Source: Candidatus Bathyarchaeia archaeon (GTDB taxonomy: Archaea > Thermoproteota > Bathyarchaeia > Bathyarchaeales > Bathycorpusculaceae). Taken from it: a stretch of 35,087 nt of DNA. The notes below the pieces were generated by a model, which searched no databases, was not told where the DNA came from, and saw only the letters and a program-made list of their open reading frames with translations. This document shows positions 7,642 to 34,567 of this stretch, piece after piece; position 1 is the stretch's first letter, and the number at the start of each line of letters is the position of its first letter. The position numbers and the translations under genes were made by a program. The stretch spans positions 1 through 35,087 of the forward strand of contig JBEKHN010000020.1 in NCBI GenBank assembly GCA_050012255.1, read 5' to 3'.

Positions 7642-7687
7642 GGTTCTGTTAACTCTTAGGCGCTTAAAGAAGTTTGTTAACTGTCGG
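7642..7687 (-). repeat. 46-bp bipartite module, copy 1
   Basis: Reverse complement CCGACAGTTAACA-N21-GTTAACAGAACC. Confidence 0.85.
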
Positions 7688-7714
7688 CGCTTTTTGTGAT
7701 AGAGCCGCCAGTAC

Positions 7715-7809
7715 GAGCCCATAAGACTTTTCGGAGTTCTAAAACGGGCCCTAATGCAGTTCTGCCAAAAAGGGCTCTCTGCAACTTTTCGAATTCCTAA
7801 AATAGGCCC
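7715..7809. repeat. Array of short units joined at GGGCCC-like cores
   Basis: GAGCCC 7715, GGGCCC 7746, GGGCTC 7772, AGGCCC 7804; the last three are preceded by C(T/C)AAAA. Confidence 0.65.
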
Positions 7810-7818
7810 ATGCAAAAA

Positions 7819-8312
7819 TCATTCATAAGTGCTGGTTCTAAGGTCGTTTAATTGTTTTTCAAAATGTCGGGCAAGTGGATCACCGCTTATGTCTATCTTC
7901 CAAGTATGGGTCGACCTCACTCGCCACTCTGCCATAGCTTCATTCACGGCTTCGTTCAGTTCTTTTTTCCCTAGGCCCGTCACTGTTTGAAAATGGGCAA
8001 CTGCTTTGTCCTACGTGTTCTGCCCATATGCAGTATTAAGTTACAATCTGCGCAGACCACTTCATAGCCAGTAAGTCTTTGTGCATAATCAGACTCATCG
8101 TAAAACCATTTCTCATGGCAGAATAACTCTCCTTTTTTCCTTGAAGCACCACAAATCTCACACCTGTAACTACATCTTTCAAGCTCTCTTTCTCTTATCC
8201 TATTCCAAGTGCTCCCAAAACCTGCACCCTTAGTACGTGCTAATTGAGAAAGGCTTTTTCCCCAAGATTTCAGTGGAACTAAATCGATGTTGTAACAACC
8301 AACCTTTACCAT
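7819..8312 (-). pseudogene. Frameshifted HNH endonuclease
   Basis: CEIC...CHEKW...CADCNLILHMGR; a second frame continues 'VTGLGKKELNEAVNEAMAEWRVRSTHTWKIDIS...YE*' to 7819. Confidence 0.7.
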
Positions 8313-8386
8313 GCGCTTTCAAGCCCATATCATATTTGCCAAAGAATCCTTATTTGATTTTTCTTCTGAAGGTATGACGATTGCAC

Positions 8387-8458
8387 AGAAGATACACGAA
8401 ATATCTGAAGAGACAAGCAAGACGACGAGTGACAGGGGTTCGCCACTAAAAGGGGCCC
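8387..8458 (+). repeat. 72-bp dispersed repeat ending in GGGCCC; inverted copy at 32210-32282
   Basis: 7 mismatches and 1 gap over 73 columns by manual alignment. Confidence 0.9.
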
Positions 8459-8919
8459 TTGTCAAAAATCGGTTGATAAAACTTACATTCTTTGGGTAAG
8501 TGCCCATACCATTCATCATAGTGTTTGCAGGATCAAAGTAGAAGGAAAGAACAAATGGTTGACCCTCATCCAAAGCGCAAGCATAAATGAGACAGATTAG
8601 CCCATGCTGACTCGCAATAGAAAAAACGGGAGTTGAAAATATGTAATTTCGTAACACTATAACTTTTTGTAATTTATCTTGTGATTGTTCTATCTATTTC
8701 TGTACCTATTCACGCTTTTTTGCTGCTTCTCTTGCTCTTTCCACGAATTTTTGGTCTTTGCTTGTTCGCCCAATCCTTTCTGCGGCTTCTTGGGTCATCT
8801 TTGTCTCTTTTGGCAATCTCTCACCTCAAATGTACAAACTGTTCATCAATCCTAAAAACTTTCCCAAATACTCTCAGTAAGAACTCTATAATCATAGTAT
8901 CAACCGATTTTTCACAAGG
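8457..8919. mobile_element. Putative non-autonomous mini-element bounded by 22-bp inverted repeats
   Basis: CCTTGTCAAAAATCGGTTGATA(8457-8478) vs TATCAACCGATTTTTCACAAGG(8898-8919), 21/22 complementary; no transposase. Confidence 0.55.
8706..8816 (-). CDS. 36-aa hydrophilic peptide, SMP/LEA-like
   Basis: MPKETKMTQEAAERIGRTSKDQKFVERAREAAKKRE; TTG start after GAGGTGAG; too short for the ORF track. Confidence 0.6.
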   Translation of the reverse strand: MPKETKMTQEAAERIGRTSKDQKFVERAREAAKKRE

Positions 8920-8949
8920 ACTTTCATCAACCGAGGATTTCACAGAACC
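8904..8949 (+). repeat. 46-bp bipartite module, copy 2 (TTTCA variant)
   Basis: CCGATTTTTCACA-N21-TTTCACAGAACC. Confidence 0.75.
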
Positions 8950-9018
8950 GAGTTGCGTTGCGTTTAAATAGATGGTGCTTCACGTATAGAGTGAATAAGT
9001 TTCCAAAAGGGAAACAAA

Positions 9019-9925: not shown

Positions 9926-10203
9926 AAAACGACTGCACTAGACAATGGTTGACGCAAACCAGTACTCTGAGAGCCTGTGCCAAGAATATTGATGCGCTTT
10001 TTACAGGTAGAGCGCGAACGTGAGAGAAGGAATAAGGAAGATAACCAGTTTTGGATAGAAAAGTTGTAGAAGAATTCCTCTTGGAAGAAATAAAGAACGC
10101 TGGAACACGTATTCCCAAAGGGATCGGAAAGAAAGAATCGGCGCCCGCCAGAACTGACTAAGACAACACTCTGCCATGCGAAAAAACGCGGCGGAGGTAT
10201 GTC

Positions 10204-10290
10204 ATGAGCCAAGACTCCCTAGAAGAGAACAGCAAAGTGAAGATTACTGATAAATTCATAGAGGATTTGAAGAAACTCAAGAATCCATAA
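10204..10290 (+). pseudogene. Truncated RelE/ParE-like toxin remnant
   Basis: GGAGGT RBS then MSQDSLEENSKVKITDKFIEDLKKLKNP*, resembling the RelE-fold N-terminus. Confidence 0.45.
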
Positions 10291-10311
10291 CGTTTACACG
10301 AAGGAACTGTC

Positions 10312-11106
10312 TTACGTCCGCTCTCCATACAAAACCAAGTGTCTTGACAACCCTTTAACTGAAGGTTCCTTGCTCAATCCCAGCAGCATCTCAGTCACCT
10401 GTTTAAAGAACTTTTCATCCCAGCTGCGAGATTCCTGAATTTCTTTGGGAATAGACAGTAAATCCAACATACCGCAAACAGCGTAGATCTCAATAACCTT
10501 AACCCCTTCCTTCTCAAAGAACTCTCTTGCCTCTTCCATGCTAACAGCCTTGTATCTCTCTTCTTCATCATAGACGTAACTCGATTTTGATTTAACTAAG
10601 GCAAGGGCAGAATCTGGGTCCTCGCAAAACTTACTGATGGCAGCGCCGAACCTATTCATCAGAAACATCGAAATCTTTCCCCCCTTCTTCGTCACTCGTA
10701 TGAGTTCTTTCGCGGCATCAATCTTTCCGTCCCAGCAGAGGACAAAATCAAAACTCTCGTCAGCAAAACGAAGCTTGCAGACATCACATTCCAAGATCTC
10801 CACTCTGTCTGAGACTCCCTCCCTGCGCATTTTTCGCTTCGCCACACTTAGCATCCCGGGAGAAATGTCACACAGAGTAACTGAGTACCCCATCTTCGCC
10901 AAAGGAAGCGTCATTCTCCCCGTGCCACCGGCGGCATCCAAAATCCTCGCGCTTTTGTCTTTTGGAAGATGTGCTCCCAGCAGCTCCCAGTCAACATGAT
11001 GTTCAACAGCACCATGGAACCTCTCATACCATTCATCATATCTCTCAGCATGCTCGTCCCATCTCTTTCTCTTGCTTTCAATCTCTCCAGACCCATTATC
11101 CAACAT
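10312..11106 (-). CDS. Class I SAM-dependent methyltransferase
   Basis: ILDAAGGTG, CDISPGML, FADESFDFV motifs. Confidence 0.9.
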   Translation of the reverse strand: MLDNGSGEIESKRKRWDEHAERYDEWYERFHGAVEHHVDWELLGAHLPKDKSARILDAAGGTGRMTLPLAKMGYSVTLCDISPGMLSVAKRKMRREGVSDRVEILECDVCKLRFADESFDFVLCWDGKIDAAKELIRVTKKGGKISMFLMNRFGAAISKFCEDPDSALALVKSKSSYVYDEEERYKAVSMEEAREFFEKEGVKVIEIYAVCGMLDLLSIPKEIQESRSWDEKFFKQVTEMLLGLSKEPSVKGLSRHLVLYGERT

Positions 11107-11197
11107 TTCTCTGCGTACCTAACCATTCCTTTTCCTGGATTCACTACTATCAAAAGTATAGTATTTAAATTACAAAGTTCATAGTCGCATACTTGAT

Positions 11198-11668
11198 ATG
11201 CAGAAGGTAAGTAATGTGAACAACAAAAGCGATAGCGCTTGTTTCTGTCCTCTGGAAAGTTTCATAAACACTATTGGCAGAAAATGGACCGTTCTTATTA
11301 TCAACGCAATTGATATTTACGGAAGGTTAAGGTTCAACAGACTTATGAAAGAGTTGGGCGGTATCAGCCCAAGAACCCTTTCGGACAGGCTTAAAGAGCT
11401 GCAAGCAGAAGGCTTGATCGAAAGAGAATTCTTTGCTGAAATACCTCTGCGCGTTGAATACTCGCTCACAAAAGACGGTGTTGAACTTAGAGAATCGATT
11501 GTACCTCTTCTAGAATGGGCTGTGAGAAGAAATGTCGCAAGCGGTCGCACCGTTGACTGTGAATGTGAGGAATGCAAGAGCAGGTTCAGATCACAAACCA
11601 TGAGTTATACAAAAGTACCTGCAACCAAAAAAGGAATTGGCGGGAGACGTCGCCGCTTAGCCACATAG
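11198..11668 (+). CDS. HxlR-family transcriptional regulator
   Basis: CPLE...IGRKW...RFNRL...ISPRTLSDRLKEL...RVEYSLT; divergent from the methyltransferase. Confidence 0.92.
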   Translation: MQKVSNVNNKSDSACFCPLESFINTIGRKWTVLIINAIDIYGRLRFNRLMKELGGISPRTLSDRLKELQAEGLIEREFFAEIPLRVEYSLTKDGVELRESIVPLLEWAVRRNVASGRTVDCECEECKSRFRSQTMSYTKVPATKKGIGGRRRRLAT

Positions 11669-11748
11669 GGCGCTTAGGCGTTAGCACGCGATTTTAGTCT
11701 GCTGCTCCTAAGAAATCTTATATCCTGAGCGGAACCAGACCTCACATC

Positions 11749-12585: not shown

Positions 12586-12617
12586 GCCAGATCATTCCTC
12601 TGAACCATAAGTAGGCG

Positions 12618-12821
12618 TTGACTCGGGTGCGTGCACACGGAGTTCCCCTTTCCCTCGTGGCTGCGGCCTTAACTGCCTTGATAACCGCGCTGGTCATCTT
12701 CTATGCTTATCACGATTGGACCCTCGTTGCCGTAAGCCTATTCCTGCTCATAGTTCTTGTCTTCTCGTTAAGAATCATTTGGCTGATTGACACTTTCAGA
12801 CGAAGAAGACCAAAATCGTAA
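12618..12821 (+). CDS. Small two-TM membrane protein
   Basis: Two hydrophobic segments and a basic tail RRRRPK. Confidence 0.6.
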   Translation: MTRVRAHGVPLSLVAAALTALITALVIFYAYHDWTLVAVSLFLLIVLVFSLRIIWLIDTFRRRRPKS

Positions 12822-13072
12822 ATCCATCGACCAACAGGCGCAACTTCTTTCCAGAGATATGTGTGAGATAATTACGCATTCTACCCAGAAAGAGTGTGAC
12901 GTTAAACGGGAATACATCAGGTTTGTATGTCATTACATGGAACGTACGCGCGCGAGGCAATCGCGAATATGAGCCTTATGAAAGATTGGAGATTTCTCCC
13001 GCAGATTCCTTCTTTGTTTCTTCCTCAAAGAACCAACTGCCAAAGCGATTGCAGAGTGATTGTTCCATCCTC

Positions 13073-13336
13073 TTATTCATAGGCTCTTTCTCTTGGCCCG
13101 ATGTAGTGAATGAGTACTACCCTTTCGTTCCAAGAGACTTGGTAAACGATTCTCAAGTCTCCCATTCTGATCCTATAAGTGCTTTCATAGCCCCTCAATT
13201 TGCAGACATCGGCTTTCCTGTATGGAATCGGGTCTTTTTTCAGAATCATAATCATTGTTGCTATTCTTTGTTTTTGCTTTTTGTCCAGTTTCTCTACGTT
13301 TCTTAGGGCTTTCCTCTTTATGCTAACGGCGAACAT
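13073..13336 (-). CDS. RelE/ParE-family toxin
   Basis: 'KLRGYESTYRIRMGDLRIVY...IGPRERAY'. Confidence 0.92.
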   Translation of the reverse strand: MFAVSIKRKALRNVEKLDKKQKQRIATMIMILKKDPIPYRKADVCKLRGYESTYRIRMGDLRIVYQVSWNERVVLIHYIGPRERAYE

Positions 13337-13517
13337 GTGTCTTGCCCAGAGCCTTCATCATTTCTCTTTCGTCAGCAATTTCACCTTTTTCTTCGATTGC
13401 CCTCTTTTCTTCGCTTGTGGGCTCTTCGACTGGTATCAGTTTCTCCACCAGCTCCTTGTAGAGAATCCTCAGTTCTTTCAGCTCTTTCTTAATGTCCTTC
13501 AACACTTCAACGCTCAC
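13323..13517 (-). CDS. Cognate antitoxin
   Basis: Acidic 'LIPVEEPTSEEKRAIE'; overlaps the toxin start; probable GTG start at 13517 (ORF track starts at 13574). Confidence 0.8.
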   Translation of the reverse strand: MSVEVLKDIKKELKELRILYKELVEKLIPVEEPTSEEKRAIEEKGEIADEREMMKALGKTHVRR

Positions 13518-13733
13518 AATCGAGCCTCGCAATCGTTTATGCAGACTCGCGTTTATATTTGTTATGAACATCATTTTGAAGGCCTCGTTTTCCCCGTACT
13601 AGCAGGAGTCGAGCATTCAATTCCATGGAACGATCACCCGCCATCCCCTTTCTCTTTCTATCTCATTAATATCTCCCGCAAACCTCTGTTTTTGTTTTGA
13701 AAGTTTTCATTCTTTCGATTGCTGTTTGAATTC

Positions 13734-14660
13734 TTATGAGGAATTTCTCGGATGTGCTTTAAGGTATTCGCTTAACGCCTTTTTTGTTATGACCCAGTTT
13801 CTGCGGAGTTTGAAGGCTCCTATGCTGCCCTTTCGGGCCAATAGGCTCAAGTATTCTTGTGTGAAGGGCGTGAGTTTGCTCGCTTCGGCCAGAGTCAGTA
13901 TTTCTGCTTCTTTTTCAAACGCAAGAAGGTAGATGTCAAGCGACCTCTCAACACAGGTGGCCACGAAATTTGCGAAAGGAATCAGATTTCCGCTATCTGC
14001 TTCGCTTAATGCTCTCAAATATTTCGGTCGATCTACTTTAAGGAGGACCGTAAACGGATACCCGGTTCTCAATAGAACGACATTCATTAGAAGCCTTGCA
14101 GTTCTGCCATTTCCGTCCAGAAAAGGATGTATGTAGACAAACCTGTGGTGGAAAAAAGCCGCCAGTTCAATCGGCCTTAATTCGTCTGGGTTTTGGCTAA
14201 GCGTCTTCAGAAGCTCGCTCATCATCGATTGGATTTCTTCCGCCGAGGGCGGCATGAAAGTCGCACCCGCAACCCTAACTTGACCACTTCTATACTTGCC
14301 CGCGTTTTGATCATCTATGCCACGCAGGAGAAGTTCATGCACCCTCAAAACATCGTCTTGCCTGATTGATGTTTTCTTTCGAGCGAGCTTCTCCACATAG
14401 TCAATGGCATCCGGATGGTTTCTCGCCTCCAAATGTTCTCTCAGACTTTTTCCACGAACCGTTATTCCCTCTTGAATGACAAGTTGAGTTTCTCTGAGCG
14501 AAAGAGTGTTGCCCTCGATGGCATTAGAGTTGTACGCAAACTCGATTTGCATCTGTTCCCACAGCTTTTTGACAAGCTGAGAAGGCAGGGGGCGAAGTTT
14601 GTCCAGAGCTCTCTTTTTCGAAAATATCCGTGCGTATATCTTAGGTTTCACCATCTGCAT
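13734..14660 (-). CDS. Fic-family protein (class II-like) with C-terminal HTH
   Basis: HPFLDGNGRTAR active site; SNAIEGN inhibitory motif; 'LTLAEASK...QEYLSLLARKG' HTH. Confidence 0.93.
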   Translation of the reverse strand: MQMVKPKIYARIFSKKRALDKLRPLPSQLVKKLWEQMQIEFAYNSNAIEGNTLSLRETQLVIQEGITVRGKSLREHLEARNHPDAIDYVEKLARKKTSIRQDDVLRVHELLLRGIDDQNAGKYRSGQVRVAGATFMPPSAEEIQSMMSELLKTLSQNPDELRPIELAAFFHHRFVYIHPFLDGNGRTARLLMNVVLLRTGYPFTVLLKVDRPKYLRALSEADSGNLIPFANFVATCVERSLDIYLLAFEKEAEILTLAEASKLTPFTQEYLSLLARKGSIGAFKLRRNWVITKKALSEYLKAHPRNSS

Positions 14661-14921
14661 GATGACATTTCCACGATCCCTCTAGGGATTAACCGATATA
14701 AAACAGTATCGTATAGACAAGTTAGTTTCACATCCGATATGTTTTCTCGACCCTTACGAATACTTGTAGCCATGCCTCCGTTCTTCTAGACGTTCAAACA
14801 GTCCATTTGGCCCTTTGGAGTTGACGCTTATTAAGGACAAACTTACCCCTCGAGCACCCACTTTGTAAGCATCAGTTTTGACAGTAAGGAACGAATGCGG
14901 TTTTTATTGGAAACGGTTTTT

Positions 14922-17789
14922 TCAAGAAGAGGCGGCGATGTCTCCCAAACAACGAAACTGGATTGCTGAGTTCTTTTTTTCTTGTCCAAGAATCAGCGTC
15001 CAAGCTTGGTTAAGAAGACTCTTAAAGCCTAGCTTTAGCCTTTCAGACGTGAAATCGGCTCTTCGCCTTTTTATTCTTGGAAAAATCGCCCCGAAGATTG
15101 TTGACACGAGCAGCATACAAATCAGGACCGGCACAGTGAACTCTGGAACGGCCTCGGTAGCCATGATACGCACGCTATGCGTCCCGGATTGGACGACTAG
15201 ATATGCGGATGTGCCGGTGCTTCCCTGAAAAACAACAGGGGTTACGGGAGATCCATCCACGTACGCGGCAAGCGTTCCACCCAAGAGGACTGATGGAAAC
15301 GTTGCGTTGACATAGGAGGACGTCGGGGACGAAATGTTCACGTTGATGCTTTTAGTCGAAAGCGAGAACTCTAACGTGGAGGTGCTCGAGTTCGTTTCCA
15401 GACTCGCAGTGAAAGACTGGGTTCCCGCCTGAATGTTGTAGTGCTCGGTTCTCGGCACGAACGACGGGGCGGTGCCAACGCCAAACCTCAGCAGCCTACC
15501 AGAGAACTTGAACTCGCCCACCCACAGGTAGTTTCCGTCAAACGCGATGCCAGCGGGCCAGAACAGCCGATCATTCCCTATTTCCGGGTCGTTTCTGCAG
15601 GTATCCGTGTCGCCAGTGCAGCCCAAGACCACATCGGCGCTTGAGCCGTTCATCGCACTCGTGATGCTGTTCCACACCAGAACACGGTTGAAGCACGTGT
15701 CTGCGACGAAGAGACGCCCCTGAGCGACGATAGCATCCTCGGGCAGGTTGAACATTCCGTAGTTCCAAAGGGTCACGGGTTGCGATTCCGCAGTGAGGTT
15801 TGAAAGGTCGTATATCCTGATCGACCCTCCTGGGTTGCTATAGGTCGTTGCGACGACCAAATGCTCCCCGTCGCTGGAGAGCCTTGTAGGCCCGTCTGTG
15901 GACAGGACAAACGCCGGGTTCACGCTGCCGTTCATAGGAATGCCGTTCCAAACGTAGATCTTCCCAGCCGCCGCATCGGCCAAGTAGAAGTGGTCCGCAT
16001 CCTCCGCAACGCCCTCCAGCTCTTGGAAGGTCACGTTGCCTATAACTCCTGAGAAACAAATGTCGGGGGGCTGCCCGAATGGCAGTTCAGTCCAGATGTA
16101 GACTTTCTGGGCTCCGGCGAGGACCAGCGTCCCGTTGTACAGGGAGATGGCCCAGGGTGGAAAACCCGGAGACCCGGCGGCCTGAAAGTCGTAGACAACG
16201 TCGGGGTGGGCGTTGGACTGGTCCGGAAGGCGCCTGTACACGTACAGCTTGCTGTCGAAATCCGAGGCAACAAACAGGCTTTTGCCATCCGTTGCTGGAA
16301 CTGGGTTCGTGAAGAAGTAGTTGGCGGCGAGGGTGTTGACGGATAGATCAGGGGCGCCGATCACGAAGTCCGGCGAAGCGTCCGCGCTTATCGGAATGCT
16401 GTTGAACACGACTATCTTGTTGGGGTTGCACAGTTCAAGGAAGAGGCACGTGCCCACGACGGCAACATCGGAGCCAATCCCCCCGCCGAAACTCGTGTCC
16501 CCCGCCCCGTTAATTGTCACATCCGGCGTGACGCTGTCATTCTGCGGGAACAAGTCGAAGATGTAGAGGGCCTCTCCGAGCAGAATGGTCCGCCCGTCAG
16601 GGAGGATGACGCCGCACGCACAATTGAACCCGGCCACCGCCCCCCACGCGGAAGAGGCAGGCGCAAAGTAACTGTATGGCTGGTCGTTCTCGGTTGGGAA
16701 AGTGTTCCAGACGAACGTCCCGGTAACGTCTGGCGATGAAACCTTGGCGTTATGGTCGCCGACCATCAAATGCGCACCGTCGCTGGTTATCATTCTGGGC
16801 GTCCCGAACTTTCCTGATGCGGTGAGGTAGATGTCGGCGGATTGGTTGTTTTGGGTGGGGAAGGTGTTCCAGACCAGGACGAGACCCCCGCCTGTGCTGG
16901 ACACGACCAGCTTCGTCCCATCGGTCCAGACGCCCCAGGGCCAGCTGATGTCGGCAAGTTTGTTTTGGTCTCCTTGGCCGACCAGCTCTAGATCCGCCGG
17001 CTGGCCGTTCTCAGTAGGAAAGGTGTTCCAGATCAGGATGCGGTTGTTGTAGGAATCGGCCACAACCACCTTTCCCCCGCTGATCGAGACTTGGCTGGGC
17101 CAGTTCAATCCGTCAAGCCCGTGCCCAGGGTTGTTGGCGTAGAAGTTTTTCTGACCGAGGACTAGGTCGGGCGGAGAGTTGGATGTGGGAATCGTGTTCC
17201 ACACGAGTATCCTGTTGTTGTCCCTATCAGCAACCAGGAGATGGTGTCCATCGGTGGCTATCCCAGCGGGATGGTTGAAAAGCAGAGGTCCCCCTGTATT
17301 GTTGAAATCGATTCCTGACAACATTACCTCCGCCGACTGGCCTGTAGATAACCACCCGCTTCGGTCGGACGGTGCTATCCTATACGTGGTGTTCACGAAG
17401 TTTACGCTTATGATCTGGGCCGTGGGGATGAATGTTGGTCGCAATAGATGGTTCGTATCCATTGTCACGTTGACCGGGTTCTGCGTGCAGTTCCAAGCGT
17501 CGAAGAACCAGTGGTCGAAACAGTAACCTGATGCGGCGTACGCGGTAACACATACCTGAGTGTTCGATGGATACTCGTGGTTTCCGGCAGGGGGGTCGGT
17601 GGTGCCGCCCGTGGATGCCTCGATCGTGAGCGTGTAGTTCGTAGGCGATCCTTCGGTGGAAGAGAATTGAGGTGAACCATTCACGTTCATGACGATAGGG
17701 TGCAGAAATGATATTACCGAAAGAGAGCCAAAGATCAAGATAGCTATCATGCAGCAAGAAAACCGGCGTTCCATTTCTGCCACATCCAC
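14922..17789 (-). CDS. Secreted NHL-repeat beta-propeller surface protein with PEF-type C-terminal anchor
   Basis: Signal/TM N-terminus; InlB-B-like repeat (YTLTIEASTGGTTDP); repeated VADxxNNRILVWN; VPEF-TM-KRRR. Confidence 0.85.
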   Translation of the reverse strand: MDVAEMERRFSCCMIAILIFGSLSVISFLHPIVMNVNGSPQFSSTEGSPTNYTLTIEASTGGTTDPPAGNHEYPSNTQVCVTAYAASGYCFDHWFFDAWNCTQNPVNVTMDTNHLLRPTFIPTAQIISVNFVNTTYRIAPSDRSGWLSTGQSAEVMLSGIDFNNTGGPLLFNHPAGIATDGHHLLVADRDNNRILVWNTIPTSNSPPDLVLGQKNFYANNPGHGLDGLNWPSQVSISGGKVVVADSYNNRILIWNTFPTENGQPADLELVGQGDQNKLADISWPWGVWTDGTKLVVSSTGGGLVLVWNTFPTQNNQSADIYLTASGKFGTPRMITSDGAHLMVGDHNAKVSSPDVTGTFVWNTFPTENDQPYSYFAPASSAWGAVAGFNCACGVILPDGRTILLGEALYIFDLFPQNDSVTPDVTINGAGDTSFGGGIGSDVAVVGTCLFLELCNPNKIVVFNSIPISADASPDFVIGAPDLSVNTLAANYFFTNPVPATDGKSLFVASDFDSKLYVYRRLPDQSNAHPDVVYDFQAAGSPGFPPWAISLYNGTLVLAGAQKVYIWTELPFGQPPDICFSGVIGNVTFQELEGVAEDADHFYLADAAAGKIYVWNGIPMNGSVNPAFVLSTDGPTRLSSDGEHLVVATTYSNPGGSIRIYDLSNLTAESQPVTLWNYGMFNLPEDAIVAQGRLFVADTCFNRVLVWNSITSAMNGSSADVVLGCTGDTDTCRNDPEIGNDRLFWPAGIAFDGNYLWVGEFKFSGRLLRFGVGTAPSFVPRTEHYNIQAGTQSFTASLETNSSTSTLEFSLSTKSINVNISSPTSSYVNATFPSVLLGGTLAAYVDGSPVTPVVFQGSTGTSAYLVVQSGTHSVRIMATEAVPEFTVPVLICMLLVSTIFGAIFPRIKRRRADFTSERLKLGFKSLLNQAWTLILGQEKKNSAIQFRCLGDIAASS

Positions 17790-18065
17790 ACACTTTCACC
17801 CCTCAGATAAAGCATTTAAGAATTCAGAATCAAGATTTCGAGTCGAGATCAAACTCAATTTCCGTGTTCTCCCGCAAAATCCGATTTTTCTTTTCCAGAT
17901 GCGAACAATCAATGGAAGATATGTGATTGCGAGATTTTGTCGATTCGTTCTACTTTTTCTTCCTCCTGGTTTTTCATCGCGTTTGCTCTGCGCGCTAGGT
18001 GTATGCTCTGTTTAGCGGAAAGTCTTAAATTCGATCAACTTGAATAAGGAAAACAGGTCACAAAC

Positions 18066-18329
18066 ATGAAGCCATACGGAATCGGACTCATCATAATATT
18101 GATTTCGTTCGTGATGGGCACATATTCAGCCTACGTATCCTACAACTATTTTGCGAACCCCCCGACCGCTCTTGACGTAGCGGCAAGGTTAGACGAATTA
18201 AAGACGGCAAGCCTGGTTGGACTAATCTCTTCAATAATAGCAATAATAGGCATACTGATATTTCTATTTGAATTCATGAAACACGAACACGGAACTTCAC
18301 CGACAAGAGTTTCACCGCCGCCTCCATAA
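18066..18329 (+). CDS. Small two-TM membrane protein
   Basis: Two hydrophobic helices, ATG start. Confidence 0.7.
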   Translation: MKPYGIGLIIILISFVMGTYSAYVSYNYFANPPTALDVAARLDELKTASLVGLISSIIAIIGILIFLFEFMKHEHGTSPTRVSPPPP

Positions 18330-18390
18330 AACACTGACCAGCAACACTGCCTACTTACGCAGAGCGCACTGTTGGAAACGCCACGTGATG

Positions 18391-22135: not shown

Positions 22136-22145
22136 TTGTGGTCCT

Positions 22146-25769: not shown

Positions 25770-26888
25770 ATGCGTCTAGGCTTCATCGTGAACCCTATAG
25801 CAGGCATGGGTGGCAGAGTGGGCCTGAAAGGAACAGACGACGTGCTCGAAGAGGCGATAGCCAGAGGAGCTAAACCAGTTGCACCGAGCAGAGCAACCGA
25901 ATTTCTGAAGAAACTGAAACGTAACATGACGGAGAAGTCAGTTGAGATTACAACATGCCCAGGAATCATGGGCGAAGAAGAGGCAAGAGAGGCAGACTTC
26001 CACGTGCAAGTCTTGCCGATGAAAATTGGGAAAAAAACATCTGCTGAAGACACAAAGACCGCGGTTGACCTTCTTGCTGCGGCAAACGTTGACCTGATAG
26101 TCTTTGTGGGCGGCGACGGAACAGCTAAGGACATTCTAGACGCCATGCAAGGCTGCCGTCAGGTGCCAGTTCTAGGCGTCCCGTCTGGCGTAAAAATGTA
26201 CAGCGGCATCTTTGCCGTGAATCCCTCAGACGCCGTGGAAGTCGTTCTAGGGTATTCTCAAGGGCGAGCTGAAATCACTGAGCTGGAAGTTATGGATTCT
26301 GATGAAGAGGCTATACGCAGAGATGTCTTCGCTGTGAAGCTTCATGGCTTTTTGAAAGGGCCTTTTCTGCCAGCTCGCATAGCGGGAAGCAAGCAGGTGA
26401 GCCCTGAAACGGATGACGAGGCTGACAATCAGAGGGCGATAGCGCGGTTCATTTTGGAACAAGTGCCGAACGACGCAACGTGGATTCTCGGACCTGGGAC
26501 GACGGTTAAGCGACTCGCAGAGCTGCTTGGCGTCGAAAAAACGGTTCTAGGTGTGGATGTCTGCCACGACAAGAAGGCGATTCTTGACCTAGATGAGAAA
26601 GGAATCTTGAAAGAAGTCAAGGATTGGAAGAACGTTTGGATCGTTCTCTCACCAATCGGGCGTCAGGGTATTCTGCTTGGAAGAGGAAACCAACAGGTAA
26701 GCCCTGAGATAGTTAAACGCGTTGGAAAGGAAAGGCTGATCGTCGCGGCGACAAAGAGCAAGCTGCAGAACATTGAAGGAAACGTTTTGAGGGTCGACAC
26801 CGGTGACGCTGAAACGGACAAGATGCTCAAAGGGTACATCAAAGTCGTCACAGACTACAAAGAATGGAGGCTTATGCACGTTCGATAG
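25770..26888 (+). CDS. ATP-NAD kinase/AcoX-family protein
   Basis: NPIAGMGG, GGDGTAKD, GVKMYSG, GRGNQQ. Confidence 0.9.
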   Translation: MRLGFIVNPIAGMGGRVGLKGTDDVLEEAIARGAKPVAPSRATEFLKKLKRNMTEKSVEITTCPGIMGEEEAREADFHVQVLPMKIGKKTSAEDTKTAVDLLAAANVDLIVFVGGDGTAKDILDAMQGCRQVPVLGVPSGVKMYSGIFAVNPSDAVEVVLGYSQGRAEITELEVMDSDEEAIRRDVFAVKLHGFLKGPFLPARIAGSKQVSPETDDEADNQRAIARFILEQVPNDATWILGPGTTVKRLAELLGVEKTVLGVDVCHDKKAILDLDEKGILKEVKDWKNVWIVLSPIGRQGILLGRGNQQVSPEIVKRVGKERLIVAATKSKLQNIEGNVLRVDTGDAETDKMLKGYIKVVTDYKEWRLMHVR

Positions 26889-26951
26889 CACGCCTTGTTT
26901 TCTGAGGAAGACATAAGAAGCTGAGATAACCAGTAATGTAAATGATACTGC

Positions 26952-29507
26952 ATGGGTACAAGATCTGCCTCTGTGCTGATTTTTTTGACACTCGTGCTTT
27001 GCCTATTTACGACACAATCTAGCTATCTCAAAGCTCACGCCTCTAATAGTTTTCCCGTCCACAACCTCAACACAGGTTTGAACTATACGACAATCGCGGA
27101 GGCAATAGCAGCTAATGAAACACTCTCAGGAGACACGATCTTTGTTGAAAAAGGAGTGTACAACGAATCAATCTGGGTTGAAAAACAACTACATTTGGTC
27201 GGAGAAGACAGAGAAACGACGATCATAGATGGAAACATGGCAAACGAAGTCATATGGCTTCTTCCAGGCGCGAGCGTCACCAATTTCACTGTACGCCACG
27301 GATTCTATGGGATCCGAGCGTATTCTTTCGGCCTGTTACCCCAATACGGAGGAACCAGCATCATCAACAATAAGGTGGAGGATGCTCTCTATGCCGGCAT
27401 CGTTTTAGGAAAAGTTTACAACAACACGATCATGGACAACATCATTACCAACAATATCCTGTCGGGCATTCACATATGGTCTTCCACAAACAACACGATA
27501 ACAAACAACACGGTATTCAACAATGGTCATGGCATCGATTTCTACGGCTACTGCAGAGATAACGTCTTGAGAAACAACACTATAAGCGACAACACGTACA
27601 ATTTTGGACTCATATGGTACGGCGATACATTGAACTGGCTTCTAGGTATGAATGGTCCAAACATAATCAATGACGTTGACGCTTCAAACACTGTGAACGG
27701 GAAGCCGATTTGCTGTTGGGTCAACAGAAGTAACGAACGTGTACCTTTGGACGCGGGATTTGTGTGGCTCACAGACTGCGACAATATAACTGTGAAAAAC
27801 TTGAATCTTTCTAACAACATCGAAGGAATGATGCTCGCCGGAACAACCAACACGCTGATAGATTGTAACAACATAACAGGAAACGCGTATGGAATACACG
27901 TCTCTCTTTTCAGCTACAACAACGTCTTCGTCAACAACACGCTTAGGGACAATGGTAACGGCGTATACCTCGGTGAATATGCCACCAACACGACCATGAG
28001 AAACAACGCCATTAGCGGGGGCCAATACAATTTTGGCGTACCGTCATATGAATGGGGTTACATTAGGTGGGTTTACCTTGGATTCACAAATGCTACGAGT
28101 GGACTGGATGACATCGATCTTTCGAACACGGTTGACGGAAAACCAATAGTCTGGTGGATCAACCAACACAACATGAAAGTTCCTTCCAACGCTGGCTATG
28201 TCATGTTGATAAACTGCACGGACATAACGGCTGAAGGGCTTTCTCTATCAAACAATATACAAAACATCATTCTGCTGAACTCTAATAACACCTTGATCTC
28301 GAACAACTCGATCAGCAATTCCGTTCACGGGATCTCGATCGAAGACCTGCCCTTCCAAACGAGCAACGGTTGGTATTTTCAACCTTCTGTGAACAACACC
28401 ATAATGGGCAACACCCTTCTTGACAACGGAATAGGCTGCAGACTGGAAGAAGGAGACTATACAATCTTGAACAACACTTTGTACAGAAACCCCCTCGGAA
28501 TTGGACTTCTAAATGCCAACGACAGCATAATAGCAGGAAATACCGTAATCGGAAGCGAACTGAATATCACCTACCCACCCCCTGATGTCATCATCTTCTT
28601 TCATCCTTTACAACACTGGCAACTCGACAGCGACTTGAACTATGGCAATGTTGGGGGCATAATGTTCGACGGCAAATCCAACATGATTTACGACAACACT
28701 GTGGAAGACAGTAGGGAGGGCATAATCGCTGGATACAGGACTTACTTCGCCCAAGGCAACATAGTCTGTCATAACAACCTCATCAACAACACGTATCAGG
28801 CATGGGAACCAATGCCCCCCTCAGACTCCTGGGATTTCGGCTATCCTACTGGAGGCAACTACTGGAGCGATTACACAGGAACGGATGTGTACAGCGGGCC
28901 CTATCAAAACGAAACTGGCAGCGACGGAATAGGAGACACGGCGTTTTTGCGCTCGCGCTTACGCATATTTGATCATTACCCGCTCATGAACCCATACACG
29001 GACCTCTACGATATCGCCATAGCCGACTCCATGACGGCGAGAGAATTTCTTAGGCAACACCGCGAAATCATCAACATCAGCATCAACGTCATAAACCTCA
29101 GCGTTGAAGCCGAAACCATCAACATCACGTTCCAAGCAAACTCCACGATGATTGCAACTTTCCAAAACATATCGCTGGCAATCGGAAAATCCACGAATAT
29201 CACATACGAATGGAATGTAACAGGTCTACCGTACGGCGAATACTTGATCAACGCTTCAGCCACCCCTGTGCCCAACGAGACCCGCATATTTGACAACAGA
29301 AGAAGTCTGTTGACAGTTCATACAGTTCCTGGAGACTTGAACCAAGACGGAACAGTCAGCAGCGATGATGCTAAAATATTAGCTGACCAGTTCGGTTCGG
29401 CACAGAACCAGCCAACATGGATTTCCAGCGCGGACATCAACGGTGATGGCGAGGTAGACATATTCGACGCGATCATTCTGGCGAACAACTTTGGAAGGAC
29501 ATGGTAA
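26952..29507 (+). CDS. Secreted NosD/parallel beta-helix protein with Ig/CARDB-like and dockerin-like domains
   Basis: Signal peptide; Asn-rich repeats; duplicated SNTVxGKPI block; GGNYWSDY..DGIGD; GDLNQDG...DINGDGEVDIFD. Confidence 0.88.
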   Translation: MGTRSASVLIFLTLVLCLFTTQSSYLKAHASNSFPVHNLNTGLNYTTIAEAIAANETLSGDTIFVEKGVYNESIWVEKQLHLVGEDRETTIIDGNMANEVIWLLPGASVTNFTVRHGFYGIRAYSFGLLPQYGGTSIINNKVEDALYAGIVLGKVYNNTIMDNIITNNILSGIHIWSSTNNTITNNTVFNNGHGIDFYGYCRDNVLRNNTISDNTYNFGLIWYGDTLNWLLGMNGPNIINDVDASNTVNGKPICCWVNRSNERVPLDAGFVWLTDCDNITVKNLNLSNNIEGMMLAGTTNTLIDCNNITGNAYGIHVSLFSYNNVFVNNTLRDNGNGVYLGEYATNTTMRNNAISGGQYNFGVPSYEWGYIRWVYLGFTNATSGLDDIDLSNTVDGKPIVWWINQHNMKVPSNAGYVMLINCTDITAEGLSLSNNIQNIILLNSNNTLISNNSISNSVHGISIEDLPFQTSNGWYFQPSVNNTIMGNTLLDNGIGCRLEEGDYTILNNTLYRNPLGIGLLNANDSIIAGNTVIGSELNITYPPPDVIIFFHPLQHWQLDSDLNYGNVGGIMFDGKSNMIYDNTVEDSREGIIAGYRTYFAQGNIVCHNNLINNTYQAWEPMPPSDSWDFGYPTGGNYWSDYTGTDVYSGPYQNETGSDGIGDTAFLRSRLRIFDHYPLMNPYTDLYDIAIADSMTAREFLRQHREIINISINVINLSVEAETINITFQANSTMIATFQNISLAIGKSTNITYEWNVTGLPYGEYLINASATPVPNETRIFDNRRSLLTVHTVPGDLNQDGTVSSDDAKILADQFGSAQNQPTWISSADINGDGEVDIFDAIILANNFGRTW

Positions 29508-29597
29508 GGTCCATGGCGTTCTCTCTCAAGTGTGGGAGAGGTAACCTTACATGCTCGTAACCTCAGTCTAGCGCACGTTATAATATGGCGAGCAGAA

Positions 29598-30113: not shown

Positions 30114-30161
30114 CAGTGAGGCCTGCAACGCACATGTCTAGTCTGCTCAGACAAGCGTGTG

Positions 30162-31427: not shown

Positions 31428-31629
31428 TCTGAGAACGCACTAAAGCTTAGGCTGAAGAAGTTAAAACACTTACGCAACCGCGAGAGAAAAGTGACAAAGA
31501 AAATTCCGTTGAATCCTCTGGGCTCGAATTGTCTCAAAAAAGGTGAGAGCGCTAAAAGAGGGTCTGTCAGCCTAGAGGTCCATTTTGAAAAAAGGTTGAG
31601 TGTAAACAGGCGATTCATTTTATGGTGCT

Positions 31630-31959: not shown

Positions 31960-32098
31960 CTTGTCACTCTCTTTTCTTCTAATATGCCATTTCAAGTAGT
32001 ATAAATAATCTCAGAAGTATCTCCCATCATCTGAGTCCGAAGAGTTGCCAGAACCGCGCGCACTAACACTTTTATTTAGGAACCCTTCAGTCTTGGAT

Positions 32099-32172
32099 GG
32101 GTTTCCCGGTTCAATCCAACAAATGCAACTGGTGCCTGTCAGTTTGCTACAGGGTTGGATCATTGGAAACCC
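32099..32172. other. 74-nt three-stem imperfect hairpin
   Basis: GGGTTTCC/GGAAACCC, ATCCAAC/GTTGGAT, GCAACTG/CAGTTTGC nested. Confidence 0.7.
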
Positions 32173-32209
32173 CTCTCTTTCCTTTTGAGGAAATCTGCAA
32201 AACTCGTTA

Positions 32210-32432
32210 GGGCCCTTTTTTAGTGGCGAACTCCTGTTACCCTTCGTCTAGCTTGTCTCTTCAGATATTTCGTGTACCTTCTATGATAAGGCAAGTTTAG
32301 ATTCACCAAAAAATCGGAATTGCGCATAGGGCCCGTTTTAGCAGAACTGCGTTAGGGGTCGGGCAATATAAACGGATTTTTTAGAGCTCATCTGGTTGCG
32401 CATGGTGTTCGGCAGACGAACAGTATGGGCTC
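32210..32432. repeat. Second GGGCCC-core array, including inverted copies of 8387-8458 and 7752-7777
   Basis: Cores at 32210, 32329, 32355, 32384, 32427; three are followed by a T-run then AG. Confidence 0.75.
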
Positions 32433-32633
32433 GTTTTTAGCGCGCGCACCATACAAGATTGCTTATGTAGATTGTAGGCACTAACCTATCAGACCTATAA
32501 GAAACAACGGACATAGATAGACTCGGTAAGAATATGCCAAAGAAAAGAGCACACGCAGGACTCAAGAAGAAGAAGAAACGTCAAGAAACATAATCAACGC
32601 ACCGCGCTAATAGAATGAGAACAATATCGCCTC

Positions 32634-32745
32634 CATCACCCGACAGTTAACACGAAGACGATTCACCCGCTAAGTTACCAGAACCCGACGAGAGGTTCTG
32701 GTGCGTCTTAGGGTGATGGTTCTTCGTGGTGCAAGTCGGGTGATG
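32634..32745. repeat. Back-to-back 46-bp modules (copy 3 at 32640-32685 +, copy 4 at 32694-32739 -) forming a 112-nt hairpin
   Basis: Paired blocks CATCACCCGAC, CACGAAGA, TCACCC, TAAG, ACCAGAACC; 8-nt loop CGACGAGA. Confidence 0.88.
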
Positions 32746-32748
32746 ACA

Positions 32749-33678
32749 TCATTCACTCAAAACAGCCTCGTCTGTACGTTTTGCTAACAGGCTGATTAAT
32801 GAGAGATATTCCAACGTTTTGTACGGGTCTTTTTGTACAATATTCATGTGTGCCTCAGGATTGCGGATTCCTACCAAGATACCCATGAACAGGTGTGCGA
32901 ATCCCTTTTGTTCGTTCATTTCGGACAGATTGGAAAGATTGTTTAAGCAAAGAACAGGTTTCTTTGTTACCCGAAGAGGGTTCCTCGAATATTCCACGCC
33001 GAAAGCTTGATCCATGAGATCAGCATCCTTGGTCGTTGTCAATTTAGATTTGTTTCTAACCTGTCCAAAAAGAGCTTTACAACTTTCAAAGATTGCCTGA
33101 GGATAGTGCCCGTCTTTAAACAATTTCTCGCTATGCTTTCTTACCGTGATATGAAACTTCAGACTGTTGAACAGAGCCCCCAACTCGTTTCTGTCTTCGT
33201 GAATGAGATACATAATGTATTCACTCTGCAAAGAGCGCAGTGTATTAACAAAATCTGGAAAGCGGTGATCGTTGCCTATCTCACTCAAAAGCAGACCTTG
33301 GCTTCTAATGATACCTTCGTAATCTCTTGATGAAAGGTTTCTCCGAAGTTCCTGTATCAGTTGGGATATTTCATCGAACCATGCAAAAACCTTGTCTTTC
33401 TCTTTCTGAACATAATCAAGAGAAAATGAAAACTCCATGTTTGTTTTGAAGATTGTTCCTATAGATTGATTGATGTAACTCTCAATCGATTTTCTATACA
33501 TGCTAATCAGTTCAGAAATGGTTTGCGTGTGTCCTTTTGCTTCATCAAAGTGTCTTTTTCCAATCATTTCGTTTATTTTCAGCGTTGAAGTCAAGGCATG
33601 ATCTCTAAAACTACTGACCTCAACTTCGATGAGTTTAATCTGTGCTTTCCCTATTTTTTGATATTTGGACTCAAACAT
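32749..33678 (-). CDS. TIGR02391-family protein with N-terminal helical extension
   Basis: 'LFKDGHYPQAIFES...DLMDQAF...NEQKGFAHLFMG...GIRNPEAH'. Confidence 0.85.
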   Translation of the reverse strand: MFESKYQKIGKAQIKLIEVEVSSFRDHALTSTLKINEMIGKRHFDEAKGHTQTISELISMYRKSIESYINQSIGTIFKTNMEFSFSLDYVQKEKDKVFAWFDEISQLIQELRRNLSSRDYEGIIRSQGLLLSEIGNDHRFPDFVNTLRSLQSEYIMYLIHEDRNELGALFNSLKFHITVRKHSEKLFKDGHYPQAIFESCKALFGQVRNKSKLTTTKDADLMDQAFGVEYSRNPLRVTKKPVLCLNNLSNLSEMNEQKGFAHLFMGILVGIRNPEAHMNIVQKDPYKTLEYLSLISLLAKRTDEAVLSE

Positions 33679-34142
33679 TCTTTTCTTCTCTCCGTTTCAT
33701 AGATGCAATTCGACCATCTAATGCGATTAGGTATTGTCTTAACTATTTTTCTATTAAGGCAAATGATGAACCAGAAAATCAGAGAGGTATTGCGTTTCCG
33801 TGTGATATTTCCAATGATGATCCTATCTTGTGCATCGTCAGGTGCCTTTTTATTGCTCTTACGAGTGAATCTGCTATATCTTCTGATTTTGACACCGTTG
33901 CTATTCGCCAGTGTTGTTTCTTGCCATGGTTTCTATCGGTTCATGGTTGCCATGGAAGAGGCAAGTTGCCATGCAAAAACTGAACGATGAGGTACACCGC
34001 ATGAAGCATTAGACGGAAAGACTCCTAGTGAGATGTGTGGAATTAAGGTAGAAGGAAAAAACAAATGGCTAACACTAATCCAAAACGCAAGCAAAAAGTA
34101 GTTAAGCCCAGTATATTCAGAACTCTCTTCTGCTGATAAGAA

Positions 34143-34532
34143 ATGGTTTTGTTGATTAAGGACATTAATTGGAAAGAATTGGAAAAAAGAATACTGAAAC
34201 AAGAAAGTTTTGTTGATAAATGTGAACATTTGTGTAAGGAAATATCTCTTGGCAGAATCTCAGACCTCACTCCATCTGGTAAGCCTCGTGATTTTGGTAG
34301 AACCTCTCATGATCCGATTTCCCCAGGCTCATGGGGGCAGTACGTTAAAGCACCAGAATTGCGTTCTCGACCAGTCAAGAAGGATGAACAAGATGATAAT
34401 GATTGGTGGAAAGATTTAACAGAAGAAGCTGAAAAACACGGAATATACATAACGCCCTCAGACGAAGATCGCAAGATTATTGTGGCTGGAATAAAGGTCA
34501 AGAATAGGTCAGAGCCATCACACGACAGTTAA
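34143..34532 (+). CDS. Hypothetical protein
   Basis: 129-aa ATG ORF; its stop codon lies inside module copy 5. Confidence 0.5.
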   Translation: MVLLIKDINWKELEKRILKQESFVDKCEHLCKEISLGRISDLTPSGKPRDFGRTSHDPISPGSWGQYVKAPELRSRPVKKDEQDDNDWWKDLTEEAEKHGIYITPSDEDRKIIVAGIKVKNRSEPSHDS

Positions 34533-34567
34533 CAAGGATTTAAATCCCATGGGAAGTTAACAGAACC
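34522..34567 (+). repeat. 46-bp bipartite module, copy 5
   Basis: ACGACAGTTAACA-N21-GTTAACAGAACC, preceded by CCATCAC as copy 3 is. Confidence 0.85.

Follow-up and report, generated by a model that had tools for sequence, protein, structure and literature searches.

The five 46-base modules dispersed through a 35,087-nucleotide stretch of Candidatus Bathyarchaeia archaeon DNA (the whole stretch analysed, hereafter the window) are, very probably, parts of the ~51-bp terminal inverted repeats of a clade of archaeal IS6-family transposons. A preliminary description had listed five copies with two matched five-base boxes (X5) each, and we confirmed the coordinates, strands and geometry of all five. 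It had offered several readings, among them transposon ends with two co-evolving binding boxes, which is the one borne out by inverted module pairs, 8-bp duplications and IS6-type DDE transposases.

We scanned the originally described pattern in the 2.35-Mb genome and in 41 related genomes, using the same pattern read backwards as a control. The genome contains 14 full-pattern matches, 5 of them on the contig under study, compared to 0 for the backwards control, and the related genomes contain 58, compared to 7, showing that further copies do exist. Within the window, the motif CAGAACC occurs 14 times (4.9 ± 2.4 in shuffled sequence, with 14 reached in 0 of 100 shuffles). The housekeeping block at 9–32 kb, from which modules had been reported absent, yielded no credible copy in regex and HMM searches. 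Degraded copies missing from the initial list were also detected, namely terminal units ending at 32055 (plus strand) and ~34852 (plus strand), and an inner-unit fragment on the minus strand.

Elsewhere in this genome and its relatives, inverted module pairs bound elements of 1.07–7.16 kb with 8-bp target duplications. Pairs were defined as inverted HMM-detected ends at most 20 kb apart, and flanks as matching if their 8-mers differed by no more than one mismatch; by this measure, 12 of the 25 inverted pairs have matching 8-bp flanks, with 0.01 expected by chance, while a shifted control, using 8-mers 8, 16 or 24 bp further out, gave a match in 0 of 25. Together with one further pair, these represent 11 distinct elements, seven of which have a transposase gene inside, in pieces or with a stop in three of the seven. 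The element at G000:C1:265763-272332, for example, is 6,570 bp long, encloses a transposase gene, is flanked on either side by CTTTATCA, and has module-type ends in which 22 of 24 bases match by eye. Tips of the ends read GGTTCTGTTAAC, GGTTCTGTGAAA or GGTTCTGGTAAC.

The transposase found in most complete elements is ~380–397 amino acids long and combines a SWIM zinc finger, a zinc ribbon and an IS6/IS240-type DDE domain. Scores against PF13610 were 62.7 and 69.1 bits (cut-off 27), with the SWIM and zinc-ribbon domains also matched, and the NCBIfam IS6 equivalog NF033587 gave 131.7 bits with a relative's copy, over the cut-off of 125, and 122.7 bits, just below it, with the copy in the genome under study. 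Residues D211, D275 and E314 are invariant in a 10-sequence alignment, and NCBI lists one homologue under the name 'IS6 family transposase'. The resemblance of the GGTTCTG terminus to IS6 ends, remarked on at the outset, is thus matched by the IS6-type DDE enzymes that the module-bounded elements encode. The co-occurring transposase that the preliminary description proposed to look for was found in every genome with internal-repeat pattern matches (9/9 at E ≤ 1e-20, compared to 2/32 of the others, with the caveat that these samples are related by kinship and not independent). Transposase-gene remnants, detected by tblastn, also adjoin the window's ends.

Each end is ~51 bp long, with 5'-GGTTCTG as its outer tip, and carries a bipartite box (ATCnnnCGA ... 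TTnACA) in two direct copies, the outer at the tip and the inner ~28 bp further in; a box spacing of ~38 bp is seen in other lineages or at an element's opposite end. The two copies form differentiated units, ATCnnnCGA-nnn-TTnACA... and ATCnnnCnnnGA-n-TTnACAGAACC, with a repeat period of 27 bp for the ATCnnnC box and 28 bp for X5. The 28-bp period reported earlier therefore stands for X5 but was incomplete, the ATCnnn box with its 27-bp period having been missed, and the 21-nt spacer, taken to be unrelated between copies, in fact includes two conserved parts, the second ATCnnnC box and a GA.

Covariation between the boxes was measured on 63 full-length HMM hits, reduced to 45 by removing copies at least 90% alike and to 33 by keeping those with in-register CGA and CA. 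Agreement between the X5 boxes extends to 130 of 165 positions (93.9 ± 4.2 with shuffled partners) and that between the three variable bases of ATCnnn to 90 of 99 (46.7 ± 5.3), levels reached in 0 of 10,000 shuffles in either case, so that the matching of X5 within copies is real covariation. It arises because box sequence differs between element lineages: within a single element all four boxes are of one type, and between elements the types differ. One element (L056) is an exception, having a perfect duplication and ends of different types, and the pair formed by the window's end D and an end on contig C16 (see below) is also mixed, a misfit with strict one-type-per-element recognition. The genome under study contains approximately six box types and one single transposase of this clade, and most ends in this assembly are therefore without a cognate enzyme.

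The two boxes per end are most likely transposase-binding sites. In Tn7, Mu and IS21, a binding site is directly repeated within each end, with a spacing that can differ between left and right, although the transposases of these transposons are unrelated to the IS6 type, their duplication lengths differ and accessory proteins are involved. By analogy, repeated binding sites in the style of these elements are most likely how the two-box ends work.

Inside the contig, none of the window's five copies has a clean partner with a matching duplication; they are solo or rearranged ends accompanied by transposase-gene relics. The left part of the window contains the following features.

7642..7692, minus strand: end A, with tip GGTTCTG at 7642 and interior to the right, AAGCGC/GTTAAC type, solo or rearranged (regex and HMM)
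8433..8597, plus strand: weak relic of a transposase C-terminus (tblastn E = 0.08 against a relative's transposase C-terminus)
8452-8480, minus strand: inner-unit fragment of an end, weak (nhmmer partial match, E = 0.14)
8899..8949, plus strand: end B of ATCAAC/TTTCA type, solo and old, its interior lying left of the tip at 8949 (regex and HMM)

Over 61 bp, end A shares 93% identity with the left end of the complete 6.57-kb element described above, and its flank, ATTTATGA, has no match among the flanks of other ends in the genome. Because the flank of end B, GAGTTGCG, differs from that of A, the two do not delimit one simple insertion. End B adjoins the promoter of a nucleotidyltransferase (DUF6036) gene pair, and at the corresponding place a related closed genome has just the terminal unit and the same downstream flank. 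Between A and B, a 56-bp segment (8532-8587) is 84% identical to 34042-34097, in the right part of the window, where we found the following.

32029..32055, plus strand: degraded terminal unit of an end (...GTTGCCAGAACC), weak (nhmmer partial match, E = 0.24-0.28)
32361..32685, plus strand: 325-bp repeated unit ending in end C, with one recognisable end
32635-32685, plus strand: end C, with tip at 32685, ATCACC/GTTAA-GTTAC type
32686..32693, no strand: 8-bp CGACGAGA common to the tips of C and D, read as the target duplication of the D element
32694..32744, minus strand: end D of ATCACC/TGCAC-CGCAC type, its interior lying right of the tip at 32694 (regex and HMM)
32749..33678, minus strand: cargo gene in the D element, encoding a 309-aa protein with a Hypoth_Ymh domain (PF09509, E = 7e-28)
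33997..34098, plus strand: remnant of an IS6-type transposase gene, comprising its final 35 codons (tblastn against the C-termini of three relatives' transposases, E = 2e-7 to 5e-7)
34517..34567, plus strand: end E of ATCACA/GTTAA type, its interior lying left of the tip at 34567 (regex and HMM)
34826..34852, plus strand: degraded terminal unit (...GTTAACAGTATCC), followed by a ~270-bp repeat where the assembly breaks

Synteny with the related genome ends at 32053. The 325-bp unit recurs at three other places in two related genomes, at 92–96% identity, with a constant left boundary and right flanks that are all different; a search for a partner end or an 8-bp duplication of this unit found neither. 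A contig from another sample carries 32567-32693 without difference and is unlike the window sequence beyond that, a weak observation. End D is probably the left end of a ~2.5-kb element that runs over the contig end onto another contig: the last 127 bases of the contig are identical to the end of contig C16, on which an end with the same 8-bp flank stands 116 bp further on, CGACGAGA also following the tip of an end at G000:C16:53811, although this pairing depends on an assembly overlap that is partly common to two other contigs. End E is an internal or older end nested in the right arm of the D element, and its flank, AAACATAG, has no match among the flanks of other ends. At the right edge, 34839-35087 matches G000:C17:46606-46853 at 98% identity, and the corresponding place there is occupied by an intact end tip.

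Among other explanations, the preliminary description had envisaged an undescribed cassette system acting in trans; in such a system, a recombinase would excise and insert small cassettes at the modules in integron or Xer/pdif fashion. Several arrangements are reminiscent of this: in a related genome, small ORFs that have their own TATA-like boxes are set apart by three like-oriented modules, spaced at 512 and 523 bp; same-orientation arrays are also present at G000:C2:665-1486 and in the window's right arm; the 325-bp unit ending in one module is found at four different places; and modules on either side of the housekeeping block mark the points where synteny with the related genome is lost. 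The same-orientation arrays and the 325-bp one-ended unit, with its fixed left boundary at four loci, are unexplained by simple transposition. However, complete elements are bounded by inverted modules and 8-bp duplications, their enzyme is a DDE transposase rather than a tyrosine or serine recombinase, and the boundaries behave like the tips of transposons. Adjacent modules in the same-orientation arrays differ in box type and are therefore unlike partner sites, and three indels relative to the related closed genome (9930-11665, 12601-18391 and 26888-29530) have no module at their borders. Like integron attC and Xer/pdif sites, the modules are short sequences that border accessory regions, vary between sites and are matched within a site, but attC is an imperfect inverted repeat (R''-L''...L'-R') that folds single-stranded and dif is an 11-6-11 dyad, whereas the modules are direct repeats with a 27–28-bp period that go with a DDE transposase and 8-bp duplications. 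Direct reading revealed no dyad within a unit, of the dif/pdif kind or as in a lox-type core, and single modules are unfolded as DNA (z = −0.47 to +0.90 for five modules); the C/D pair alone folds, because it consists of two inverted copies. We consider a cassette system very unlikely.

If the box pairs were instead operators, each bound by the cognate transcription factor of a neighbouring accessory operon, paralogues per operon would give rise to the covariation. Downstream of end B there is indeed a TATA-like box at 13 bp and the gene pair at 70 bp, TATA-like stretches such as CTTTATCA and TCATAAAT come after several ends, and IS6 ends are known to supply promoter parts (PMC7986276). Ends C, D and E, however, face gene ends or one another rather than gene starts, and neither the constant GGTTCTG tip nor the 8-bp duplications nor the transposase link would be expected of operators, making this explanation extremely improbable. 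The fixed 27–28-bp period and the central bases that vary between copies could also suggest a minimal repeat-spacer-repeat unit encoding a guide RNA or recording an acquisition event, as had been proposed. Nevertheless, the presumed spacer belongs to the second box and has conserved columns, orthologous copies keep their central bases unchanged across species, there are just two units and these are differentiated from each other, and the window showed no Rfam match and the module no fold, leaving a guide unit with a negligible probability. These results agree with the initial remark that the geometry is unlike attC, dif or CRISPR, the tested hallmarks of all three being absent.

The same type of element was recovered without reference to the modules. 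In a module-blind search of 78 transposase loci of other archaea, an 8-bp duplication with inverted ends was found at 51, compared to 6 and 7 in two controls. The majority of these ends start with GGTTCTG, thaumarchaeal relatives having ACTTCTG instead, and further into the end the terminal box is found again, at offsets that cluster around 27–29 and 37–40 bp. Elements of this wider clade are 2.4–11 kb in size and occur in Bathyarchaeia, Methanoregula, ammonia-oxidising archaea, and Woese- and Nanoarchaeia (small-celled archaeal lineages), and many of their cargo genes are restriction-modification, toxin-antitoxin or other defence-type genes. A full-text literature search found no published description of an archaeal IS6-type group with two-box ends and a SWIM domain.

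The defining features of the IS6 family are 8-bp duplications, tips that begin with GG and have G as their seventh base, the motif cTGTt, and GGTTCTGTTGCAAA as consensus (PMC7986276, PMC6807381). The archaeal elements resemble IS6/IS26 elements (IS26, IS257/IS431, IS1216) in a DDE transposase matching IS6/IS240 models, in the 8-bp target duplication (12/25 inverted pairs, 51/78 wider loci), in ends with an initial GG, a G as seventh base and the stretch GGTTCTGTT in common with the bacterial consensus (PMC6807381), and in a tendency to insert beside a resident copy (PMC7986276). Known members, as far as that source's relevant passages describe them, are ~800 bp long with 14–20-bp ends and no cargo, one passenger-gene member being cited (PMC7986276). 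In contrast to this simple organisation (0.7–0.9 kb, the transposase as only gene, 14–20-bp ends), the archaeal elements are 1.07–11 kb long and mostly cargo-bearing, with ~51-bp ends containing two direct-repeat boxes, a transposase with extra SWIM and zinc-ribbon domains, and neighbours that are separated by a shared 8-bp duplication rather than conservatively fused. Harmer and Hall suggest that archaeal 'IS6' elements may merit their own family (PMC6807381). The archaeal elements assigned to IS6 in ISfinder (for example ISPfu1 and the ISC774 group) likewise have archaeal hosts and a DDE transposase of the same superfamily, and their ends are at least 18 bp, longer than the bacterial ones, many starting with GG and having G at position 7 (PMC6807381); the consulted passages on them make no mention of two-box ends, cargo or a SWIM domain. 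The ISC774 model matched two of three transposases tested weakly, at 20.5 and 36 bits (cut-off 200), and not this genome's own.

We propose that the two boxes of each end would be bound by the transposase's N-terminal DNA-binding domains, positioning the catalytic domain at the tip, and that transposase lineages may have co-evolved each with its own boxes, producing the observed covariation. Insertion would proceed by a staggered 8-bp attack, probably replicative (copy-in) by analogy with IS26, and new insertions may be drawn to the 8 bp abutting resident end tips, with later recombination and adjacent deletions leaving the solo ends seen in the window. Only the outcome is visible, as many solo ends and as elements abutting each other at 8 bp: facing tips lie exactly 8 bp apart 17 times in 3.74 Mb, and 0–3 times at any other gap from 0 to 30.

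More tentatively, and as a possibility that we rate somewhat below even, resident ends, solo ones included, may act as landing pads steering incoming elements of the clade to the tip-abutting 8 bp. A transposase bound to a resident end would direct them there, the platform being the two-box end with its inner box one helical turn nearer or farther (~28 or ~38 bp). Elements with different cargo could thereby stack tip-to-tip and build defence-gene islands, in a duplication-making, copy-in counterpart of IS26 targeted insertion.

At the level of confidence given above, identifying the modules as transposon ends settles the puzzle they posed, as neither a new cassette system nor a guide system, and brings to light a large group of archaeal mobile elements of IS6 type with long two-box ends and an added SWIM domain. 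The box types provide natural variants for studying how an IS6-type transposase reads its ends, and the 8-bp tip adjacency hints at the way in which accessory and defence regions expand in these genomes, and at the reason for the assembly breaks in them. Landing pads, if true, would give archaea in general a means of mobilising restriction-modification and toxin-antitoxin genes.

All five modules of the window, which is the complete contig C20 of the source genome (G000; 2.35 Mb, 38 contigs), were confirmed in position and in geometry, and they are the ends of IS6-type transposons; the preliminary observation is thus both real and explained.

End A, 7642-7687 (-), tip at 7642, facing inward toward B
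End B, 8904-8949 (+), tip at 8949, facing inward toward A
End C, 32640-32685 (+), tip at 32685, terminating a 325-bp unit that recurs at three further sites in two related genomes
End D, 32694-32739 (-), tip at 32694, beginning 8 bp past C
End E, 34522-34567 (+), inside the element that begins at D

The CAGAACC motif is over-represented in the window, with 14 occurrences compared to 4.9 ± 2.4 in shuffles. Scanning with the full pattern returned 58 matches in 41 related genomes, compared to 7 for the pattern read backwards, the corresponding genome-wide counts for G000 being 14 and 0. Aligned copies showed two differentiated tandem units per module (consensus ATCnnnCGAnnnTTnACAnGnnnnnnnATCnnnCnnnGAnTTnACAGAACC), a repeat longer than previously described. 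The 21-nt spacer proposed earlier therefore holds as fixed module geometry but not as unrelated sequence, since, with two tandem units in the consensus, a second copy of the ATCnnnC box sits inside it.

The reported covariation of the two five-base boxes (X5) was borne out in 33 non-redundant canonical modules, where the partners agreed at 130 of 165 positions, compared to 93.9 ± 4.2 when partners were shuffled 10,000 times. The three variable bases of ATCnnn agreed at 90 of 99 positions (46.7 ± 5.3 shuffled), and a control column pair from the same modules showed no excess (28/165, compared to 27.8 shuffled). For neither box did any of the 10,000 shuffles reach the observed value, a count that is not a true probability because the module copies are kin.

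Three IS6/IS240-type transposase genes (PF13610) are present in G000, one of which, on contig C1, is flanked by two inverted modules, an arrangement seen again in related genomes.

Complete element on contig C1
G000:C1:265763-272332, 6,570 bp, starting GGTTCTGTTAAC... and finishing ...GTTAACAGAACC, with CTTTATCA on both flanks
Encoded: transposase, 390 aa (C1:269308-270498), with SWIM, Zn-ribbon and DDE domains
Encoded: Eco57I/N6-methylase-type protein, 1,038 aa
Encoded: two proteins without family match

Among 25 inverted pairs of ends detected with an HMM and lying at most 20 kb apart, 12 had 8-bp flanks matching with at most one mismatch (0.01 expected by chance), some of them being combinations that span adjacent elements with a common duplication; when the flanking 8-mers were taken 8, 16 or 24 bp farther out, none of the 25 pairs matched. 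Together with one further pair, these resolve into 11 elements of 1.07-7.16 kb, seven with a transposase gene (fragmented or with a stop in three) and four that are non-autonomous. A co-occurring transposase was present in 9/9 genomes whose pattern matches hold the internal repeat and in 2/32 others, these being related genomes rather than independent samples. Inverted pairs, 8-bp duplications and the transposase match uphold the reading of the modules as IS6-type transposon ends. The other two G000 transposase genes (G000:C2:121092-121991 and G000:C21:1948-2832; ~295-300 aa, 73% mutual identity) have no module near either and were set aside; their products have a Zn-ribbon and no SWIM domain.

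The modules had also been read as recombination sites of a gene-cassette system or as guide units, and a role as operators was considered in addition. Single modules showed no fold (z = -0.47 to +0.90), and Rfam at gathering thresholds and ARAGORN returned no RNA family and no tRNA in the window; all three readings are therefore held at low odds. The cassette reading gives way to IS6-type transposon ends, which explain the modules, and the guide reading found no fold and no Rfam match to sustain it. A C/D-box small RNA was rejected after visual inspection of the reverse strand, on which the order and sequences of the boxes do not fit.

The window shares synteny with a closed related genome from 8924 to 32053, interrupted by three module-free indels, and transposon ends lie at or just past both borders. 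The indel stretches, whose borders carry no transposon end and which the closed genome lacks or has in much shortened form, are the following.

26888-29530: beta-helix/dockerin protein
9930-11665: methyltransferase with HxlR regulator
12601-18391: ParE, Fic/DOC and a 955-aa NHL-repeat protein, with a second copy on contig C5 (82% identical)

Between A and B lie 1.2 kb that include a fragment of an end and a weak relic of a transposase; A and B were rejected as the ends of a single simple insertion, as their 8-bp flanks do not match. They also differ in type. End B is old: in the closed genome its terminal unit persists, along with the same promoter region downstream, but its inner unit is absent. 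For D, the last 127 bases of the window are identical to the end of contig C16, on which CGACGAGA, the sequence present at D, also follows an end lying 116 bp beyond the common stretch. D to C16 is thus probably a 2,510-bp element, the join being less than certain because contigs C17 and C18 also contain part of the same terminal repeat. Apart from a Hypoth_Ymh gene, this element carries end E, a degraded end and a 35-codon relic of a transposase (E = 2e-7); D and E themselves have differing 8-bp flanks and were rejected as a simple insertion. Contigs of four sequencing runs, which break at the repeats, yielded one candidate empty site for the D element, limited to a single sample (in run X2, where the contig spans 32567-32693 and then diverges from the window). 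Two joints also came from these contigs, both most likely derived from paralogous copies.

Several features fit a simple model less well. Each element has one box type, common to the inner and the terminal box at both of its ends, with two exceptions: an element (L056) that has a perfect duplication yet ends of two types, and the D/C16 pair, whose ends likewise differ. G000 has about six end types but one transposase of the module clade. Same-orientation ends form arrays with a spacing of 56-520 bp, often with a tiny lysine/arginine-rich ORF ahead, and the one-ended 325-bp unit (32361-32685) has a fixed left boundary without duplication, at which no TIR-like end was seen by eye. IS6-type elements usually give rise to adjacent deletions and to recombination between ends, events that could have produced the arrays and the 325-bp unit. 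In the window, lysine/arginine-rich ORFs of 28-30 codons lie at 32509-32595 (+) and 34987-35079 (+), 40-110 bp upstream of a same-orientation end, a pairing that recurs in a related genome as well as on contigs C16, C17 and C18.

Other repeats were observed in the window.

3514-3549 (+): one solo copy of a 36-bp repeat ending GCATGCGCGC
32056-32200 (+): ~140-bp element, directly after a degraded transposon tip and TATA-like box
8384-8459 (+) and 32209-32285 (-), also 32208-32361: 75-150-bp repeat (...CCCTTTTTAGTGGCGAAC...), two copies in opposite orientation, 88% identical

The 36-bp repeat has about 24 genome copies (88-100% identical), often paired in inverted orientation at a distance of about 110-230 bp, GCGCGC tips outward, and apparently forms its own family of miniature inverted-repeat elements. 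The ~140-bp element occurs throughout the genus with several copies in a genome (92-96% identical), has a metagenome contig depth of 190-460 compared to 13 nearby, and has no Rfam match; one copy is bracketed by GCGCGCGC. Its possible identities are a small RNA gene and a miniature mobile element. The 75-150-bp repeat also adjoins transposon ends in related genomes.

Across 3.74 Mb (G000 and retrieved loci), facing tips lie exactly 8 bp apart in 17 cases, compared to 0-3 for every other gap of 0-30 bp; C and D, previously termed a hairpin pair, are one of the 17. At one site upstream of a proteasome subunit gene, three genomes within the genus differ in the elements stacked there, all with CTTTATCA between the stacked elements, and Methanoregulaceae and Nitrosotalea loci likewise have elements 8 bp apart. 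We therefore infer that new elements insert by duplicating the 8 bp already beside a resident tip. In the part of the IS6 literature drawn on here (PMC7986276), IS26 and its relatives are similarly described as inserting beside a resident copy, but conservatively, without the duplication made here. In a Nitrosotalea locus (L105, 6944-15944), two adjacent clade elements have one 8-bp duplication, TTATATCA, in common between them, and one holds a BrxC/D-type ATPase and a DNA methylase.

A transposase scan with one genome per species gave 78 loci, from Bathyarchaeia, Methanoregula and relatives, Nitrosotalea and other ammonia oxidisers, Hadarchaeota, Thermoplasmata, Woese- and Nanoarchaeia and a few others. 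A module-blind search for identical 8-mers on either side of the gene, with at least 17/26 inverted matches just inside, found duplication and inverted ends in 51 of the 78, compared to 6 and 7 in two controls. These elements measure 2.4-11 kb, and their ends start mostly with GGTTCTG, thaumarchaeal ends with ACTTCTG. The terminal box recurs within the same end (mean best match 11.4/19, compared to 9.4 in interior control DNA), and among 48 ends with at least 12/19 matches the offset is 37-40 bp in 32 and 27-29 bp in 13, the two often being split, one spacing per element end. The difference of roughly 10 bp is one helical turn, and we infer that it matters.

Apart from the transposase gene, 50 elements contain 155 ORFs that reach 110 aa, and 150 of these were scanned as cargo; most ORFs outside those listed below had no family match at E <= 1e-5.

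Cargo families among the 150 ORFs
Restriction-modification methylase, specificity or nuclease: 18
SocA/Panacea: 5
ParB_N: 3
PIN: 2
Fic: 1
AAA_15/AAA_21: 1
BrxC/D: 1

Against the NCBI IS6 equivalog (cut-off 125), one transposase copy scored 131.7 bits and the G000 copy 122.7 bits, and a homologue carries the name 'IS6 family transposase [Candidatus Bathyarchaeia archaeon]'. The sections of Varani et al. 2021 (PMC7986276) and Harmer and Hall 2019 (PMC6807381) used here give as family traits 8-bp duplications, ends of 14-20 bp (bacterial consensus GGTTCTGTTGCAAA), GG tips, G at position 7 and a cTGTt motif; according to them, only one catalogued member has a passenger gene, and archaeal members have longer ends and may merit a separate family. 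Measured against those sections, the tips (GGTTCTGTT...) and 8-bp duplication agree with the family, whereas the elements are 1.1-11 kb rather than about 0.8 kb, carry cargo, and have two-box ends of about 51 bp rather than 14-20 bp. In the full-text papers searched, no description of this IS6-type variant was found.
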